Shown in pieces: positions 1-6,395 of a DNA stretch of 34,527 nt; within the stretch, counting starts at the first letter, position 1; every line of letters begins with the position of its first letter. The position numbers and the translations under genes are program-made. The stretch comes from a virus (lineage: Duplodnaviria; Heunggongvirae; Uroviricota; Caudoviricetes). Under the pieces are notes generated by a model, which saw only the letters and a program-made list of their open reading frames with translations, made no database searches and was not told the origin of the DNA. The stretch lies in IMG/VR virus record IMGVR_UViG_3300029702_000330; one strand, 5' to 3'.

Positions 1-19
1 CTATTTGATAAATATTAAA

Positions 20-1315
20 TTAATTTTTCATTGCTTCGTTATGGGGCATGGTTGGGGCAAACTCGCTTAACTGTGTATTTAACAAAGCTACCTGTGCATT
101 ATTGTTTTCAGACATCCATTTTCCGTATACCTGAAATACCATTTGCGCATCTGCATGGCCCATCTGGTTTGCTATAAATGCCGGGTTAGCACCAGCTGTC
201 AGCGACCAGCAGGCATAAGTATGTCTCGACTGATATGATTTTCGATGGCGGAGTCCGGCACGTTTTATCGCTGCGTCCCACATCTGCCTTATTGAGTCAA
301 CGGTAAAATGGTCACCATAATTTTTTACTCTCGCTGACACTTCAGGTTGAAAAACAAAGGTGCATTTTTGTTTTTCTGTTCTGCCATACTCTCTGAGGTG
401 AACATCAATGATATGCTCTTTGCTCAGTCTCGTTAATGTCATCTGACTCCGGAGAGCGTCGATTGCTGGCTTAATAAGATGAATGACCCGATTGGTTCCC
501 GCCTGTGTTTTTGGTACCGTGAAACGGTCTTTTGCTAAATTTCTCCTGATCATCATTGTTCCATTTTTCAGATCTATGTCCTCCCATCCAAGTGCACACA
601 GCTCACCAGGGCGAACGCCAGTATAAACAGAAACACACCATAAATTTTTTGCTTGCTGATTTCTGCATGCATCGATAAGACGGATAAATTCCTCCCGCGA
701 AAGAGGATCCGGAATGGTTCTTGATTCCTTTAATGGCGAGATCCCCTTAAACGGATTATCTGCCAGGTAACCGTTATCAACACCAAACTGGAACACGGCG
801 TTAAGATTTGTCATGTAATTATTTACAGTTACAGCCGATCTCCCTGGTTGTGTAACAATATAGTTACTTTTGGGGATCTGGTATCCAGTCAGTAGCTCTT
901 TACGAACCTCCAGTAATTTTTCTTTATTAATCGATGAGGCAAGATTTTTTTCACCGATTATGCTCAGGATATTTTTGATGACGGCACGGTATGTGTTGAG
1001 TGATGTTTTGGCGACTTCAGTTTCTTTCAGTGCCAGAAATTTTTCAGCCAGTTCTTTTATGGTTAAATCTTGTCGGGCCTCACCAAATTTTTCCAGATTG
1101 CGTGAGGAGGGAAACTGTTTTGCATAGTCGAAAACACCAGTTTTTATTGCGTAACAAACAGAGGAGCGTAGTTCACCTGCAACGCGCCTGTTTTTTGCTG
1201 TGTCAGGAACCCCCAGATTTTCCCTGACTCTTACGCCTTTATAAACAAACCAGATACGTAATTTCCCTCCATGGTTTTCCACGCCTGTCGGATATTTCAT
1301 TTCAACTTCTCTCAT
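20..1315 (-). CDS. Phage tyrosine integrase (site-specific recombinase); true start may be the internal Met at 1300
   Basis: 431-aa ORF at the window edge; N-terminal 'YPTGVE...GKLRIWF' arm-binding style and C-terminal catalytic region (R...H..R...Y pattern) typical of lambdoid/Rac-type integrases; followed on the same strand by an excisionase-like ORF. Confidence 0.85.
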   Translation of the reverse strand: MREVEMKYPTGVENHGGKLRIWFVYKGVRVRENLGVPDTAKNRRVAGELRSSVCYAIKTGVFDYAKQFPSSRNLEKFGEARQDLTIKELAEKFLALKETEVAKTSLNTYRAVIKNILSIIGEKNLASSINKEKLLEVRKELLTGYQIPKSNYIVTQPGRSAVTVNNYMTNLNAVFQFGVDNGYLADNPFKGISPLKESRTIPDPLSREEFIRLIDACRNQQAKNLWCVSVYTGVRPGELCALGWEDIDLKNGTMMIRRNLAKDRFTVPKTQAGTNRVIHLIKPAIDALRSQMTLTRLSKEHIIDVHLREYGRTEKQKCTFVFQPEVSARVKNYGDHFTVDSIRQMWDAAIKRAGLRHRKSYQSRHTYACWSLTAGANPAFIANQMGHADAQMVFQVYGKWMSENNNAQVALLNTQLSEFAPTMPHNEAMKN

Positions 1316-1334
1316 TAGTTAGTGTGGCTTTTAG

Positions 1335-1586
1335 TCAAGTAAGATGACGTCTTGGTCTCGCTGATGCCTGGCGCTCAATCCAGCGATCAATTTCTTCCAG
1401 GTTGTAAAAGCATGGACTGTTATCCCATGGCATACCGTCATGAGCGACATGCTTATATTCCCTTCCTTCCATAAACGATTTTTCCCGGGCCTTTTTTAAC
1501 GTACCTTTTTTTATTCCTTTCAGCGCAATTAACTGCTCTTCGGATACCCATTTGCCGGGAGAGACAATCATGATTACTTCGCTCAT
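1335..1586 (-). CDS. Excisionase-like small DNA-binding protein (Xis/AlpA-like)
   Basis: 83-aa basic ORF immediately upstream of int on the same strand, the classic int-xis arrangement. Confidence 0.6.
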   Translation of the reverse strand: MSEVIMIVSPGKWVSEEQLIALKGIKKGTLKKAREKSFMEGREYKHVAHDGMPWDNSPCFYNLEEIDRWIERQASARPRRHLT

Positions 1587-1658
1587 CGATTTCTTTATCT
1601 CTTACATCAGACGAGCGCCGGTTGCAGAATACCAGTCACAACCGGCGACAGTTGAACA

Positions 1659-4130
1659 TTAAGAATCAGCCTGACTCGGGATCAGTTTTTGCCAGATAAC
1701 TGAAACGTATTTTGCCTGGTAACGGGCGTCATCAAGTGCATTATGGCGCTCACCTTCGAATGGAATAGCCGTTCTGGCATCGAAGTCTATGGCTTTCCCC
1801 AGCTCAACGATTGTGCGTACATCGCGATCGTTGTAGTAACGCCACGGGCAGGGGAGCCCCTGCCGTTCGTATGAACGGCGCAAAATCGTGTTGTCGAAGT
1901 TGGCTCCATTTCCCCAAACCTGAACAAAAAATTCACCGGAGTTTTCGTCGATAAATTCCCGCAATTGTAACAGTGCATCATCTAACGGGATTTCATCGGT
2001 CATAATGGCAGATTGCGCTTCGCGTGATTGCTTAAGCCACCATTTAATGGTGTCCCGATCAATGACTCCGCCAGCAGTTTCCAGATCGATAGTCTTACTA
2101 AATTCCGGTCCCATATCTCCGGTTTGCGGATCGAAAAATATTGCACCTATTGAGATGATCGGCGCATCAGGATTTTTTCCCATGGTTTCAAGGTCGATCA
2201 TTAGATGGTCACACGTCCTGCTGGTGGATGTGATTTCGTGATGACCGTTCACCTTAATTGGGTGATCTGCCGTCTCGCCAGTTTCATTATCGCTATTGTG
2301 ATGCTGATTGCCGCCAGTGTTCTCCTTGTGTGGATGTTCAGCGCCTTCCATTTCCTCCGGATCATCTTCCTGAACTTCAACCTGATACTCTTCATCGAAT
2401 GTTTCTTGGTATGTTGCGTCGCCCATCACCGCGCCACAATCAGGGCAGTTGCCGCCGCCGGTCTGACCGCAGGCGGTGCAGGCTTTTTCCACTTCCTGGT
2501 GCGCCACTGGTTCAGGCTGTTTCGTTTCTGGCTCGTTTTGTAACGCATTTGGACTGTTTTGTTCCGCTTTTTGGTAGTTCCGTTCCGATTCATGCTGGTT
2601 CTGGTTCACAGAATCGCGGGTCTGGATCCCCTTAACCCATTTCGGATCATTCGGGTCACTAATCCCTTCAACAAATTCACCACGTGATGCAGCAAGCAAC
2701 TTATCGGCGTCAGGCTGGCTGATATTGGCTGCCTGCATAATTTTGTTTACTTCGTCAGCGGTAACTTTTATCGGCTCTGGTTGTTCTGAATCTTCAGCGG
2801 TATCTACATTTTGCGGTAAGCCCGTGTATGTGCCATTTTTTCGGGCAAAATATTCTTCTTTTGTGATTTCAGTGGCGCCAGCAGCCAGTGCCTTATCCAG
2901 ACCAGAAAGTTTGTTTGCGCGACCGTATTTTTCTCCGTCCTTATCTGCGAAGAGGAAATAGAACGGCCCCTCACGCTCTACAGATGGTTCAGCTTCCGGC
3001 GCGGTTTCATTTTTTGGGATATCAGATACCTCAGTTTCCACTGCATCAGTTTGTGTTTCTGATGACTGGAGAACATCAACAGTGCCCAGGTCTGTTTCTT
3101 CATTCTCAAACACGCCCTTTGTCGTCAGGTATTCGCAGATATATTTGTTCAGTGCTACGGGATCTTTGTGAATGTCGATCGGACGCTCACGGACAAGGCC
3201 AAAAATAGTTTGGCGGTCGTAGCGAAGGGCATCAGGCTGTTTGCGCATTGATGCCGAGATACGCTTCCAGTCTTCGCGGTCGTTGTCGATAACTTCTTTT
3301 TTTGCCCAGCGATGGATGCTGCCGTCAATGTTTCTGGCATCCACATCACCAGGCCAGAGAGCGTAGGCCAGTTCGTCATCCAGTGTTTTCCATGTCTGCT
3401 TGTATTCGCGATGAATGGCAGCAATGACCGGGCTGATTTTTCCTGTTGAATTTTCAGTGTACTGTTGATTGGCTCTGGCGCGGGCGAGATCAACAACAGA
3501 CGTGTATTTTCCGGTTTCCTTGCGTTCACCTTCGCGACGTTTTTTCCAGATGCGCATCTCTGCCTGAATTTCGGGCCATTTAGCACCAGGAATACATTTA
3601 TGCTTAACCCACCCAATGGCGTGCAACTTAAGCTCCGGATACATGGCGTTAACTTCTGGCATTTTCATCAACGCTTCAACGATATGTCCGTCGAATGTTG
3701 CCATGTCTTCCTGCAACAATTCCTGTGCGCTAATAACCATATCAACGGTGATGTTTTCACATGTGTCGAACTTAACCATGACAGCGTTCTGTACTTCAGG
3801 GGCCAGCTTGTCAAAAGTGACGTTCATCGGATCGGATTCAGTCTCAACCGGGACAAAAGAAGCAGACTCCTCATCCCAGCGGTTTTCCTGCATATATTCA
3901 GCATCCCATGAATCGAGGGCAGGGCGGGGTATGCCAGGTTTATCCTCGCAGACGATAAATTTATAAGCGCAGTCCTGAGCAGCCGGATAATGTTCCAGGA
4001 ATTGCCAGTGAAATTTTGCTCGAGCACGGCGTTCGTCGCCAGCTTCAATGGCTGTGGCTACAGCCACAGCGCCTTCTTCCCTTGTTGCCAGTTCGTCAGG
4101 AATAGCGGCGCAAATAAAGACTTTACTCAT
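1659..4130 (-). CDS. Large phage exonuclease with C-terminal DnaQ-like (DEDDh) 3'-5' exonuclease domain; commonly annotated exodeoxyribonuclease VIII-like in prophages
   Basis: 823-aa ORF; C-terminus shows Exo I 'MIDLETMG', Exo II 'VWGNGANFDNTIL' and Exo III 'HNALDDARY' motifs; central acidic low-complexity linker and a CxxC...CxxC zinc-ribbon ('CTACGQ...CPDCG'). Confidence 0.7.
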   Translation of the reverse strand: MSKVFICAAIPDELATREEGAVAVATAIEAGDERRARAKFHWQFLEHYPAAQDCAYKFIVCEDKPGIPRPALDSWDAEYMQENRWDEESASFVPVETESDPMNVTFDKLAPEVQNAVMVKFDTCENITVDMVISAQELLQEDMATFDGHIVEALMKMPEVNAMYPELKLHAIGWVKHKCIPGAKWPEIQAEMRIWKKRREGERKETGKYTSVVDLARARANQQYTENSTGKISPVIAAIHREYKQTWKTLDDELAYALWPGDVDARNIDGSIHRWAKKEVIDNDREDWKRISASMRKQPDALRYDRQTIFGLVRERPIDIHKDPVALNKYICEYLTTKGVFENEETDLGTVDVLQSSETQTDAVETEVSDIPKNETAPEAEPSVEREGPFYFLFADKDGEKYGRANKLSGLDKALAAGATEITKEEYFARKNGTYTGLPQNVDTAEDSEQPEPIKVTADEVNKIMQAANISQPDADKLLAASRGEFVEGISDPNDPKWVKGIQTRDSVNQNQHESERNYQKAEQNSPNALQNEPETKQPEPVAHQEVEKACTACGQTGGGNCPDCGAVMGDATYQETFDEEYQVEVQEDDPEEMEGAEHPHKENTGGNQHHNSDNETGETADHPIKVNGHHEITSTSRTCDHLMIDLETMGKNPDAPIISIGAIFFDPQTGDMGPEFSKTIDLETAGGVIDRDTIKWWLKQSREAQSAIMTDEIPLDDALLQLREFIDENSGEFFVQVWGNGANFDNTILRRSYERQGLPCPWRYYNDRDVRTIVELGKAIDFDARTAIPFEGERHNALDDARYQAKYVSVIWQKLIPSQADS

Positions 4131-4223
4131 TTTGTTTTAACCTCATGACAGATTTAAGGATGAACAAATCCCTGCCATTGCTGGCATATAAAAATGAAAC
4201 CGGATATTTATTACGGAACTGTT

Positions 4224-4415
4224 TTAAAGACCTGCCGGGATTTCGATATTATCCTGGTGAATAACTTTATCGACCGGGTAACAGTTACCGGGAATTTTCT
4301 GTTCGGTTGCTGCAGTCATACACTCCTGCATTGTCCTGTGAACACTGACTGCAATATCAACTGGCACTCCGGAAACAAGAAAAACTGTCAGAACAAGTGC
4401 AAATGCTGAATTCAT
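4224..4415 (-). CDS. Hypothetical small protein with N-terminal signal-peptide-like hydrophobic segment (63 aa)
   Basis: 'MNSAFALVLTVFLVSG...' hydrophobic N-terminus; AAGGA-like RBS; ATGA overlap with the upstream small ORF. Confidence 0.3.
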   Translation of the reverse strand: MNSAFALVLTVFLVSGVPVDIAVSVHRTMQECMTAATEQKIPGNCYPVDKVIHQDNIEIPAGL

Positions 4416-4600
4416 TGTGCACATCCTTTTGGCATCAGACGTAAACGAGCCAGCATTGAAACAATGCATATTTTATTTAATAGCTCCCGTTCTTGTTTTC
4501 TCTTGTTAATGGCATCTTCAGTAAATACAGGGTTACTGATAGTGACACCAATTTCAAAACAACCTTCAGACGTATTAACGTTTGGTAATAACGTTTTCAT
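4412..4600 (-). CDS. Hypothetical small early-left protein (62 aa)
   Basis: Internal Met of a 97-aa ORF preceded by GAGGA 7 nt upstream; stop overlaps the next start (ATGA), suggesting translational coupling. Confidence 0.3.
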   Translation of the reverse strand: MKTLLPNVNTSEGCFEIGVTISNPVFTEDAINKRKQERELLNKICIVSMLARLRLMPKGCAQ

Positions 4601-5086
4601 TATCGCGTCCTCAACAATGAATTTTGTGATGCAGTGCCTGGTGCCTCCAGGTGACGTTAACCAGTTAACAATTAACGTCGGATACAGAGAATCCACCCAT
4701 AACACTGTTTTTGGTTTTAACTGTTCCGCGTGCGCTTAGCCGCATTCACCGCATCACAAAATTCACTTTAAAAACGGCGGCAGAGCAGTCACGGAGTAAA
4801 ACTGATACCGCCAAACGTCACCAGAAAATTGATAACAGAGGGCGTTGCAGCGGGGTTGTCACTTAAGCGTATGGTCAACCTGACAACTCGGTGTCCTCAA
4901 CGGGGAAGGAATAACCCCGCCATACTTACCGCCGCGCCATTTTGCGGGTTGCCACAACCGGAAGCGCACGGTCGAATTAAATTTAACGACACCGTACAGT
5001 GAGACGAACTTCGCCGTGCGCTTTCGTGTTGTGTGCCTGCTTTTAACCACGTCAGGCGAGGTGGTATCCTTAAAATCACCACAGTT

Positions 5087-5662
5087 TTAAGGATTCATTA
5101 AGCAATGTCGCAACCACCAATAAATCCGCTTAAGAACATGAAAATTGATTACTGGTATAAAGCGCTTACAGTTGTTGGCGCTGCGTTGTTTGTCTTTAAT
5201 GGAACGTCTTTTTTTGACAGATATCCCGTTGTTCCATTGGGTTTTTTGTCCTCCGGCATCTTTTTTATTGGTTTGGGGGAGTGGATTAATCACCCTCTCA
5301 AAGTGAGATTTATTGATCCTGGAGTTTGGACTCGTGGATATAATCGTTCTTCGTGCGCACTCAGTATCATCTTCGACATACTTGGTTGTTTCCTGATTGT
5401 TACAGGAGTCGTCAAGTTCTTCTGATGTAAAACCGCAAATGGGGCACGTAACGGGAATTTTGAAAAGCGTTTCTCCGGGTTCCAGAACAAAATTTTCTGC
5501 GGTCTGATTTTGCTTCTCATATTTGTGCTCCGCGTCATTGTGAGAGCACATTCTTATTCTGAGTGCCTGTTTAAACTCACTGAAGCTGAGAGCTTCTTCG
5601 CCTTCGGCAAGGCCTTCGAAGTATTCTTCGTAAGCCTTTTCCATGATTGTGTCGAAATCCAT
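5087..5662 (-). CDS. Hypothetical acidic protein with CxxC motif (191 aa from internal Met); C-terminal part overlaps an antisense membrane ORF
   Basis: Start ATG at 5662 lies 1 nt after the TGA of the upstream gene with GGTGA RBS; N-terminal 80 aa acidic with 'CPICGF'; C-terminal 110 aa is K/R/N-rich and may be antisense shadow. Confidence 0.4.
   Translation of the reverse strand: MDFDTIMEKAYEEYFEGLAEGEEALSFSEFKQALRIRMCSHNDAEHKYEKQNQTAENFVLEPGETLFKIPVTCPICGFTSEELDDSCNNQETTKYVEDDTECARRTIISTSPNSRINKSHFERVINPLPQTNKKDAGGQKTQWNNGISVKKRRSIKDKQRSANNCKRFIPVINFHVLKRIYWWLRHCLMNP
5105..5425 (+). CDS. Putative small integral membrane protein (about 3 TM segments), antisense to the 3' half of the 5087-5662 ORF
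   Basis: Three hydrophobic stretches ('ALTVVGAALFVF', 'VVPLGFLSSGIFFIGLG', 'ALSIIFDILGCFLIVTGVV'); RBS weak, so uncertain. Confidence 0.3.
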   Translation: MSQPPINPLKNMKIDYWYKALTVVGAALFVFNGTSFFDRYPVVPLGFLSSGIFFIGLGEWINHPLKVRFIDPGVWTRGYNRSSCALSIIFDILGCFLIVTGVVKFF

Positions 5663-5663
5663 A

Positions 5664-5819
5664 TCACTCACCTGAGTTTCTTTCCAGCCAGCGACGGGCA
5701 CCATTTTCGGTTTTAAACGTTTTGCTTTTGGTATACGTCATCGCGGTGAACGTGCCGTCCTGGTTGGGGAACACGCCACATACCAGAGATTCGCTGTTGC
5801 CAAGATCGATAGTATCCAT
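5664..5819 (-). CDS. Hypothetical small protein (51 aa), first gene of the leftward early operon
   Basis: Internal Met with GAGG 5 nt upstream; sits just downstream of an operator-like palindrome and is coupled to the next gene. Confidence 0.4.
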   Translation of the reverse strand: MDTIDLGNSESLVCGVFPNQDGTFTAMTYTKSKTFKTENGARRWLERNSGE

Positions 5820-5934
5820 GCTGACCTCATTTCCCCTTAACGCCGGGGTAGCGGAACTGTTTGCTGAGAACACCGTGCGGTGTCTTGATGGAAAGTAATT
5901 TAGAATAACCTAACATAAGAGGCAAGTGTTTTTT

Positions 5935-5950
5935 GTTAGATTAGTCTAAC
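5935..5950. promoter_or_regulatory. Operator-like 16-bp palindrome GTTAGA-N4-TCTAAC (distal, on the leftward-operon side of the repressor gene)
   Basis: Perfect inverted repeat read directly; same half-sites recur twice in the repressor/cro intergenic region. Confidence 0.45.
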
Positions 5951-5987
5951 AAAAAGAGTGGGCGCAACTAATCACTTGAAAAGAATG

Positions 5988-6395
5988 TTATTTTATTGAT
6001 TTATTTTTACGCGCTTTAAGCATTTCTTCGAAGAGTTTGTTGAAGTTTTCTACTCTTGCGCGCATTTCAGACAGCAAGGCTTCCTGCTCGGAAGATGGAA
6101 GAGCATCGAATAATTCGATCAATTCTTTGTGGTTGGGAGTTAGCTCTGTTTCCACATGAAGTTCTTGTGCCGGCACTGGTGCCTTGTCTTCGTCACCAAA
6201 CATTAGCCATGTAGGTGAGCACTTCAGAGCATCCGCTAAAGCAAACAATCGTTTTCCGACTGGCTGGGTTTCGTCTCTTTCCCATTGTGAAATTGTGACG
6301 TGAGCAACCCCAGCGAGGCGCGCAGCTTCTCGTTGTGTTAAGCGTAATTCTTTTCGTCGCGCCAGAACTCGCTGGCCTAGGGTTCTTGTATCCAT
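5988..6395 (-). CDS. Prophage repressor, XRE-family HTH (CI/DicA-like)
   Basis: 135-aa ORF with N-terminal HTH 'LRLTQREAARLAGVAHVTISQWERDE'; divergent from a Cro-like gene; resembles DicA of Qin from memory. Confidence 0.85.
   Translation of the reverse strand: MDTRTLGQRVLARRKELRLTQREAARLAGVAHVTISQWERDETQPVGKRLFALADALKCSPTWLMFGDEDKAPVPAQELHVETELTPNHKELIELFDALPSSEQEALLSEMRARVENFNKLFEEMLKARKNKSIK

Follow-up and report, generated by a model that had tools for sequence, protein, structure and literature searches.

A DicF small RNA and its processing leader in the early-left operon of a lambdoid prophage, next to a conserved inverted repeat upstream of an antisense 106-aa gene

The minus strand of positions 4775-5036 is very probably a DicF small-RNA unit in the early-left (dicBF) operon of a lambdoid prophage, with a processing pathway that can be proposed by homology to Escherichia coli K-12. 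The unit lies in a stretch of viral DNA of 34,527 nucleotides (Caudoviricetes; IMG/VR record IMGVR_UViG_3300029702_000330), which is referred to as the window throughout. It comprises a full-length DicF, a structured leader and a long conserved hairpin, occupies the position expected of dicF in a dicBF-type operon and contains no preserved coding frame. DicF and its precursor have been known since 1989-1990 and are still under study, so that the core of the stretch is already known and holds nothing new. The only uncharacterised piece is a conserved hairpin and repeat block at its right edge, which precedes a mostly unannotated gene for a 106-aa protein.

From 5′ to 3′ in the direction of transcription, the unit is composed of the following features.

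4951..5036, minus strand: long imperfect hairpin with a lower stem of ~22-25 bp, its arms at ~5014-5036 and 4951-4971 and its variable apex at 4972-5013
4891..4952, minus strand: leader A, the 5′ part of the 190-nt DicF species, with a C-run varying by 1 nt
4828..4890, minus strand: leader B, 63 nt directly 5′ of DicF, with a conserved hairpin GUUGUCA...UGACAAC
4775..4827, minus strand: dicF, a 5′ single-stranded seed followed by the terminator hairpin GGCGGUA.CAGU...ACUG...UGCCGCC
4770..4774, minus strand: U5 tract, which finishes the Rho-independent terminator; the minus strand reads ...CCGCCG UUUUU AAAGUG

Positions 4775..4827 encode the full-length, 53-nt DicF sRNA. The Rfam family RF00039 matched 4775..4826 on the minus strand with 72.5 bits against a gathering score of 48, along the whole model (1-52 of 52; E = 2.6e-14), and DicF was the only family to reach its gathering score in the Rfam search of the stretch. 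The gene maps from 4827 to 4775 on E. coli K-12 b1574, with 52 of 53 bases identical. The sole mismatch is the last base (4775), which lies beside the U-tract and outside both the 5′ and the 3′ pairing regions; it is G here and C in K-12 Qin, and the G allele occurs in 24 of the 132 copies collected. Hairpin and U5 together (4770-4812) form a Rho-independent terminator, built of GGCGGUA/UGCCGCC with an inner CAGU/ACUG, and the U5 tract, conserved in 85 of 85 alleles, is likely the Hfq-binding 3′ end of DicF. Model score, full length, target-pairing sequence, dicBF-type operon location and terminator all identify the RNA as DicF, which is also annotated at the homologous site in the record of phage Tritos. 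In K-12, DicF acts with Hfq by pairing with the ftsZ, pykA and xylR mRNAs and repressing their translation, so that division is inhibited, cells filament and metabolism is altered; ftsZ and pykA mRNAs pair with its 3′ part and xylR mRNA with its 5′ part (PMC5069750). Because the only allelic difference is the base beside the U-tract, the DicF of the window would be expected to have the same targets as that of K-12.

A preliminary description, made from the letters alone, had proposed that positions 4740-5086 might hold a structured RNA such as a phage sRNA. A small RNA with a structured precursor leader does occupy the minus strand; however, DicF was not recognised as such, and the perfect inverted repeat highlighted in that description falls outside the small-RNA unit. 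The same stretch had been called GC-rich, which does not agree with its 51.3% G+C against 48.1% for the window, at the 61st percentile of same-size windows.

The surrounding genes show the order of a dicBF operon, that is, a DicA-like repressor, ydfA, a ydfB remnant, DicF, dicB and ydfD.

5988..6395, minus strand: DicA-type repressor gene (NCBIfam NF007257 'transcriptional repressor DicA', 224.7 bits against a cut-off of 101)
5664-5819, minus strand: ydfA, from alignment to K-12 Qin and phage Tritos and from PGAP
5561-5662, minus strand: truncated ydfB, given by PGAP as 'ydfB incomplete, missing C-terminus'
4412..4600, minus strand: dicB, 62 aa (NCBIfam NF049927, 132.8 bits against a cut-off of 100; PGAP annotation of an identical genome)

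The calls for ydfD, ydfA and the truncated ydfB are those of the PGAP annotation of a genome that is 99.66% identical over window positions 1-5857. In a PGAP-annotated genome that is 100% identical over 1.1 kb (window 4400-5500), ~960 bp from dicB to the ydfB remnant (4601-5560) are left blank. A perfect palindrome is located at 5930-5955, and the repressed promoter dicBp should lie near it, between the repressor gene and ydfA. From 4560 to ~5035, the minus strand is 98-99% identical to the ydfC-dicF-dicB spacer of K-12, where dicF (b1574) is annotated between ydfC and dicB of Qin. Of 5426 complete E. coli genomes, 4735 contain at least part of the 1.1-kb query; the copy number has a median of 2 and a maximum of 10. 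The stretch coincides with a mosaic module junction at ~5026-5071.

Processing of DicF has been described in K-12, and the sites given here for the window were carried over from that strain by homology. According to the K-12 study (PMC10448788), DicF lacks its own promoter, no internal promoter having been found, and is cut from a polycistronic dicBp transcript; a 190-nt species depends on RNase III and the 53-nt species on RNase E, and dicBp transcripts either end at the DicF terminator or continue into dicB-ydfD. That study gives the RNase III site as 'between positions 813 and 814' and marks it by a coloured letter in Fig. S1 (PMC10448788).

In the window, leaders A and B, which represent the 5′ extension of the 190-nt species, are identical to K-12 at 135 of 137 bases. 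Counting back from the DicF 3′ end via K-12 coordinates, with an uncertainty of ~5 nt, the 5′ end of the 190-nt species is calculated to fall at ~4959-4964, within the 3′ arm of the hairpin 4951-5036. We infer that this hairpin would act as the RNase III processing stem that makes that 5′ end. Its folding energy is -38.6 kcal/mol (z = -4.83), and none of 200 shuffles was equally stable. The complementary runs noted there in addition to the perfect repeat are also real: 4959-4971/5014-5026 and 4953-4963/5023-5033 are parts of the one hairpin at 4951-5036, and 4850-4864/4906-4920 is the closing stem of leader A (GGCGGGG...CCCCGC). Leader A includes a segment, GGCGGUAAGUAU, that is similar to the 5′ arm of the DicF terminator and is predicted by RNAalifold to pair with the 3′ half of DicF. 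In the GUUGUCA...UGACAAC helix of leader B, more than 99% of cells are paired. Leader B ends in an AU-rich single-stranded junction, ...GUUAUCAAU|UUUCUGG, at the 5′ end of DicF, as expected for RNase E. A tRNA-like ancestry of the leader was considered and rejected, as ARAGORN finds no tRNA in the window.

These elements support the following route for DicF biogenesis. By homology to K-12 Qin, release of the promoter ahead of ydfA by the DicA-type repressor would allow a long leftward transcript that covers ydfA and the ydfB remnant, crosses the 106-aa gene in antisense and enters the DicF stretch. RNase III would then cut the hairpin 4951-5036 at ~4959-4964 to give a ~190-nt species ending at the DicF terminator, from which RNase E would release the 53-nt DicF by cutting the AU-rich single strand at 4828|4827. 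A share of transcription would pass the terminator into dicB and ydfD. The antisense passage through the 106-aa gene, absent from K-12, could alter the DicF yield.

Conservation of the unit was assessed on 127 DicF-bearing loci, namely 120 viral contigs and 7 species-representative genomes from a scan of GTDB genomes, a collection with one genome per species. Three of these seven are metagenome-assembled genomes labelled Veillonella, Collinsella and 'Proteobacteria', which we suspect to contain contaminating enterobacterial contigs. The hairpin arms, together with a leader of at least 200 nt, were kept in all 102 distinct upstream contexts of DicF (102/102). Homology to the window breaks at ~5044 in 85 loci, at ~5071 in 18 and at 5026-5033 in 9, and extends across essentially the whole 419 nt compared in 16, so that breakpoints cluster just outside the hairpin 4951-5036. 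The retention of the leader in every context and the positions of the breakpoints indicate that hairpin, leader and DicF travel as one unit of ~270 nt.

Among 85 non-redundant alleles, the lower stem of the hairpin is paired in all 85, with only one-sided changes of the G-U type, and 24 different apical cassettes all fold onto the same lower stem of ~22-25 bp. Nucleotide diversity (pi) is 0.225 in the apex, 0.012 in the hairpin 3′ arm, 0.011 in leader B and 0.016 in DicF, with 0.055 in leader A and 0.042-0.055 in neighbouring non-coding DNA. By this measure the constraint on the hairpin 3′ arm and on leader B equals that on DicF. One could tentatively go on to ascribe a separate function to the 137 nt by which the 190-nt species is extended at its 5′ end, since they are no less constrained than DicF (pi 0.011-0.012 against 0.016). 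Analysis of the helices of the unit by RNAalifold and pair counting across the 85 alleles gave 99.7% pairing and no two-sided pair changes, with shuffled controls equal to the observed values. As strict covariation is absent, the proposed structure rests on compatibility with pairing, folding energy and published cleavage.

The preliminary description had seen no credible open reading frame in 4740-5086, and this is borne out, since the reading frame is not preserved among the 85 alleles. Small basic proteins could nominally be encoded on the minus strand by ORFs of 63 aa (4859..5050), 61 aa (4897..5082) and 29 aa (4789..4878). The 63-aa ORF matches phrog_8854 (E = 1.2e-27), and the record of phage HannyBb carries three hypothetical CDS over DicF and its leader, including the 61-aa and 29-aa ORFs. 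Yet the 63-aa ORF has the same stop in only 23 of the 85 alleles and is stopped after 9 codons in 38 of them, the K-12 type included, and in 36 of 84 alleles length differences in this region are not multiples of 3. The 29-aa ORF overlaps DicF itself, a Pfam scan of the short ORFs gave no matches, and neither K-12 nor the PGAP annotation has a CDS here. Coding capacity in the stretch is therefore highly improbable; the match to phrog_8854 is best explained by repeated automatic calls on near-identical DNA, and we regard the three HannyBb CDS as spurious.

To the right of the DicF unit, the prophage carries a ~520-bp module (~5036-5560) that is not homologous to Qin and stands in for ydfC and the 3′ end of ydfB. 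Its relevant features are listed below.

5105..5425, plus strand: 106-aa membrane-protein gene, antisense within the dicBF operon and unannotated in most RefSeq genomes
5028..5104, plus strand: conserved block of ~75 nt directly upstream of the 106-aa gene
5066..5094, no strand assigned: perfect inverted repeat ATCCTTAAAA-N9-TTTTAAGGAT, with arms at 5066-5075 and 5085-5094 and a 9-nt spacer

The module occurs once each in 806 of 5426 complete E. coli genomes (~15%), and no feature was annotated at it in 36 of 40 sampled genomes. From sequence comparison, ORF 5105-5425 is a real gene. Its product has 58 homologs, among them proteins of equal length at 35-56% identity in Yersinia, Herminiimonas and Reinekea, and the family shares invariant YWYKA and GxGEWxNHP motifs. 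The predicted fold consists of three helices and a beta-hairpin (AF2 pLDDT 83.4). Searches of the protein against Pfam, PHROG, PADLOC and NCBIfam gave no match at E <= 0.1, and a Foldseek search of the model against BFVD returned nothing below E = 0.03. Homologs encoded in other prophages are without exception flanked by the early-left genes on one side and the repressor gene on the other, and they face the opposite way to early-left transcription; on the lambda map, the analogous position is that of sieB (lambda and P22). Membership of the SieB family was rejected in the absence of a Pfam or PHROG match, and the analogy is positional only; lambda SieB has ~190 aa, against 106 aa here.

The perfect inverted repeat with 10-bp arms reported in the preliminary description exists, although its right end had been placed at 5096, 2 nt beyond the real end at 5094. 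The window has 6 perfect inverted repeats of at least 10 bp with loops of 3-15 nt, where first-order Markov simulations predict 0.3. This repeat is not part of the DicF unit but a hairpin-forming element in the 5′ flank of the 106-aa gene, 11-39 nt upstream of its ATG. Its hairpin has a folding energy of -12.6 kcal/mol on the plus strand (z = -3.8) and -9.4 kcal/mol on the minus strand (z = -2.5) and is part, on both strands, of the minimum-energy fold in each of the four variants modelled; neither folding energy nor G-U asymmetry pointed consistently to one strand.

The repeat forms the last element of the conserved block. The interleaved repeats GCCTG (5035-5039)/CAGGC (5053-5057) and CCAC (5047-5050)/GTGG (5061-5064), which would be capable of forming a pseudoknot on either strand, are followed by an extended -10-like motif, TGnTATCCT (5062-5070), and by the perfect inverted repeat. 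The left arm of the repeat overlaps the -10-like TATCCT, and the AAGGA of the right arm (5089-5093) is separated by 11 nt from the ATG at 5105. The block is common to homologs of 50-82% protein identity in other prophages (loci L132, L244, L133-135 and L136-137). Two viral scans with short patterns for further variants of it returned almost only chance matches; a filter for the downstream homolog over all loci collected added one variant (L244), giving five in all. A locus search with the 106-aa family gave near-identical copies from E. coli as its best 80 loci; a search seeded with a distant 106-aa homolog gave ~30 diverse loci, whose upstream regions have no leader in common with the window. 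Throughout the five diverged variants the structure is kept, with outer and inner stem retained and unrelated loops, and the innermost pair swaps from C-G to G-C.

Of three readings of the repeat, we favour a stem-loop in the mRNA leader, place an operator overlapping the promoter next and rank an RNA element of the minus strand last. Most likely, the repeat would form a stem-loop in the leader and thereby hide the AAGGA ribosome-binding sequence or make the mRNA more stable. This reading is weakened by two of the variants, whose AAGGA is 16 nt away from the ATG, a spacing too long for a good ribosome-binding site. Moreover, if TGnTATCCT is a promoter, transcription would start inside the loop of the repeat, and the hairpin could not form in that mRNA. 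The repeat was also considered as an intrinsic terminator and rejected: its stem is AT-rich, the sequence that follows it (UCAUUAAG on the plus strand, ACCACCUC on the minus strand) has no U-run on either strand, and it was not listed by the terminator scan.

The same promoter-like motif underlies the second reading, in which the repeat is not an RNA hairpin but a DNA operator for a dimeric regulator, overlapping the promoter of the 106-aa gene. We consider this possible but unlikely. The conserved extended -10-like motif runs into the left arm, the sequence of the outer half-sites (ATCC/GGAT) is conserved in five of five variants, and a promoter inside the block would start transcription within the repeat. 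Nevertheless, no promoter in block 5028..5104 passed the criteria of the promoter scan, and the compensatory change in the inner stem, together with unrelated loops of 6-9 nt, is more readily reconciled with a structure than with a spaced operator. An immunity operator can be excluded in any case, because the repressors of the five host prophages differ in type (DicA-like, LexA/S24-like and small HTH).

The third reading would place the repeat and the adjacent repeats in the minus-strand dicBF transcript, as structures protecting the 3′ end of the upstream fragment once RNase III has cut, or as part of an sRNA processing cassette. On that strand, all three elements fold one after another immediately 5′ of the RNase III hairpin, with a pseudoknot geometry that looks canonical from the sequence (a 3-nt loop 1 and an A-rich 6-nt loop 3), and at L133-135 the block lies just 5′ of a hairpin and a tRNA on the early-left strand. 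The upstream ydfA RNA is, moreover, destabilised by loss of RNase III in K-12 (PMC10448788). However, K-12 and most DicF loci lack block 5028..5104 and yet make DicF, whereas the block always accompanies the 106-aa gene at a fixed distance from its ATG, and a role in the dicBF transcript is accordingly rather improbable.

Beyond the leader stem-loop itself, a broader proposal can be made only tentatively and is doubtful as a whole: that 5035-5094 may be a new cis-regulatory leader, composed of pseudoknot-capable repeats and a hairpin, of a 106-aa gene in a sieB-like position, and that expression of this gene may be coupled to DicF and DicB by convergent transcription and by a shared structured region beside the RNase III stem.

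Two further functions had been suggested for the stretch in the preliminary description. The first, a nut- or put-like antitermination site on the early-left transcript, would suit its location in the early-left operon, its wealth of stem-loops and the two or three consecutive minus-strand hairpins in 5035-5094. It is nonetheless very unlikely. No boxA (CGCTCTTTA-like, with at most 1 mismatch) occurs on the minus strand in 4700-6000, nor does any boxA-like match in or near the stretch; one match, at 6010, is on the plus strand and inside the repressor gene, and the 7 matches in the whole window compare with 6.7 expected, which is the chance level. A nut site would be promoter-proximal, whereas more than 900 nt separate this element from the promoter region; DicF is the sole Rfam match, and RNase III processing and the 5′ flank of the neighbouring gene already account for the hairpins. 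The second, a site for site-specific recombination, attP-like or of the Xer/invertase kind, is extremely unlikely, despite the presence of inverted repeats and the clustering of prophage-module homology breakpoints at 5026-5071. Integrase and excisionase are encoded 3.4 kb away (20-1586) at the end of the prophage, where an att site would be expected, which makes a site of the integrase type unlikely here, and the sequence is internal to prophages in the 4735 E. coli genomes (of 5426) that carry it. The breakpoints are of the usual mosaic kind and fall where a conserved functional unit ends.

Finding DicF and its precursor again has no discovery value, but it illustrates that a reading of raw sequence can detect a real structured RNA locus. 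For annotation, one relevant point is a conserved 106-aa gene that is present in ~15% of complete E. coli genomes and usually left unannotated. If this gene and its leader had an exclusion or defence function, expressed by the prophage and antisense to the DicF precursor, they would provide a modest new example of the interplay between a lysogen-expressed gene and a toxic early operon.

The position of the 106-aa gene has features in common with sieB, both being genes for small inner-membrane proteins that lie in the early-left region near the repressor and run opposite to early-left transcription. DicF itself has no dedicated promoter: its 5′ end is made by endonucleolytic cleavage, and its 3′ end is an intrinsic terminator that also binds Hfq. 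Its site is not the 3′ end of an mRNA but lies mid-operon between coding genes, with partial read-through into dicB. Compared with K-12 Qin, the window shares the DicF terminator hairpin and U-tract, the arms of the RNase III hairpin and the downstream order dicB-ydfD. It differs in the apical 42 nt of that hairpin, which are a different cassette, and in the replacement of the ydfB 3′ end and ydfC by the ~520-bp module with its oppositely oriented gene. Finally, whereas Qin is a cryptic remnant, DicF is found here in an apparently complete prophage, which over the stretch is 99.5% identical to the isolated phage HannyBb.

The dicBF operon contains, antisense to its transcript, a conserved gene for a 106-aa membrane protein, and two repeat structures of the early-left region lie nearby, as listed here.

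Repeats and gene of the dicBF region (window coordinates)
5035-5064: interleaved repeats, GCCTG (5035-5039)/CAGGC (5053-5057) and CCAC (5047-5050)/GTGG (5061-5064)
5105-5425, + strand: conserved 106-aa membrane-protein gene, antisense inside the dicBF operon
5930-5955: perfect palindrome, TTTTTGTTAGA-CTAA-TCTAACAAAAA, flanked by the start of ydfA and by the stop of the gene for the DicA-type repressor

The encoded protein is predicted to comprise three helices and a beta-hairpin and carries the motifs YWYKA and GEWxNHP; family and structure searches returned no match for it. In position the gene is comparable to sieB of the lambda map. Among 5426 complete E. coli genomes, the module bearing the gene was found in 806; its site is devoid of any annotated feature in 36 of the 40 RefSeq annotations sampled. 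Judged by their sequence, the interleaved repeats could form an H-type pseudoknot, possible on either strand, and they are kept in four diverged loci of 106-aa gene homologs. The palindrome is probably an operator, placed where dicBp, the DicA-repressed promoter of the dicBF transcript, should lie.

Three related prophages (L133, L134 and L135) encode a homolog of the 106-aa protein and lack DicF; the DicF-equivalent slot, on the early-left strand, is occupied by a tRNA gene.

tRNA genes (Asn-GTT or Gly-CCC) in the DicF slot
L133, 1294-1375, - strand
L134, 1294-1375, - strand
L135, 1302-1375, - strand

Immediately before each tRNA stands a hairpin whose base, CACAACCG...CGGTTGTG, is the same as that of the DicF RNase III stem. 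This common base, together with the position of the tRNA, suggests that DicF and the tRNA share a slot for a 'processed small RNA'.

Downstream of DicF, a full-length, sub-threshold match to the Rfam family STnc100 (window 4568-4777, - strand; 33.5 bits, where the gathering score is 47; E = 2.6e-5, a value obtained in a 1.1-kb search) spans the dicF-dicB spacer and the 5' end of dicB; the hairpin CCUGGAGGCACCAGG within it aligned well, and this weak match was found again in the Escherichia sp. 20412-1 prophage (L132). In the RNAalifold prediction, the 3' half of DicF (4775-4800, - strand) pairs with a leader segment at 4925-4948 (…AAAUGGCGCGGCGGUAAGUAUGG…); read on the - strand, this segment is similar to the DicF terminator's 5' arm (GGCGGUAAGUAU versus GGCGGUAUCAGU). 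The paired columns are invariant and hence give no covariation signal either way. By competing with terminator formation, this predicted pairing could modulate read-through into dicB.

Phage HannyBb (PP925841), whose positions 2390-3305 correspond to window 4789-5704, has three CDS there, all probably spurious.

Deposited CDS of HannyBb
29-aa ORF, across DicF
61-aa ORF, spanning the RNase III hairpin
205-aa ydfB fusion, antisense to the 106-aa gene

Three short contigs (L008, L009 and L010) also matched the degenerate DicF search pattern exactly. They come from MAGs that each represent a species and bear the labels Veillonella parvula, Collinsella sp. and 'Proteobacteria bacterium'; we suspect that these are mis-binned enterobacterial prophage DNA and that the labelled hosts are not the true ones.

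Elsewhere in the window, three Rfam matches exceeded the gathering score.

Further RNAs of the window
11285-11459, + strand: sok antitoxin RNA, 115 bits
15014-15406, + strand: cspA-type thermoregulator 5' UTR, 159 bits
17915-18300, + strand: cspA-type thermoregulator 5' UTR, 109 bits

The sok match implies a putative hok/sok-type module. In the K-12 prophage Qin, cspA-type 5' UTRs occur upstream of prophage cold-shock genes. In L132 (757-945, - strand), C4 antisense RNA (76.4 bits) and isrK RNA (60.3 bits) lie downstream of DicF and adjoin an ASH/Rha-family gene, an early-left cargo of another kind behind the common DicF unit. The prophage of NZ_AP022087 is 99.66% identical to the window over 1-5857 and 98-99% over most of 12127-33629; it differs from 5858 to about 12100, immunity genes included, with a DicA-type repressor in the window versus a LexA-family protein in NZ_AP022087, and the sole match within that interval is 497 bp (11200-11696). 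Read from this alignment, the pattern is that of a typical lambdoid mosaic.
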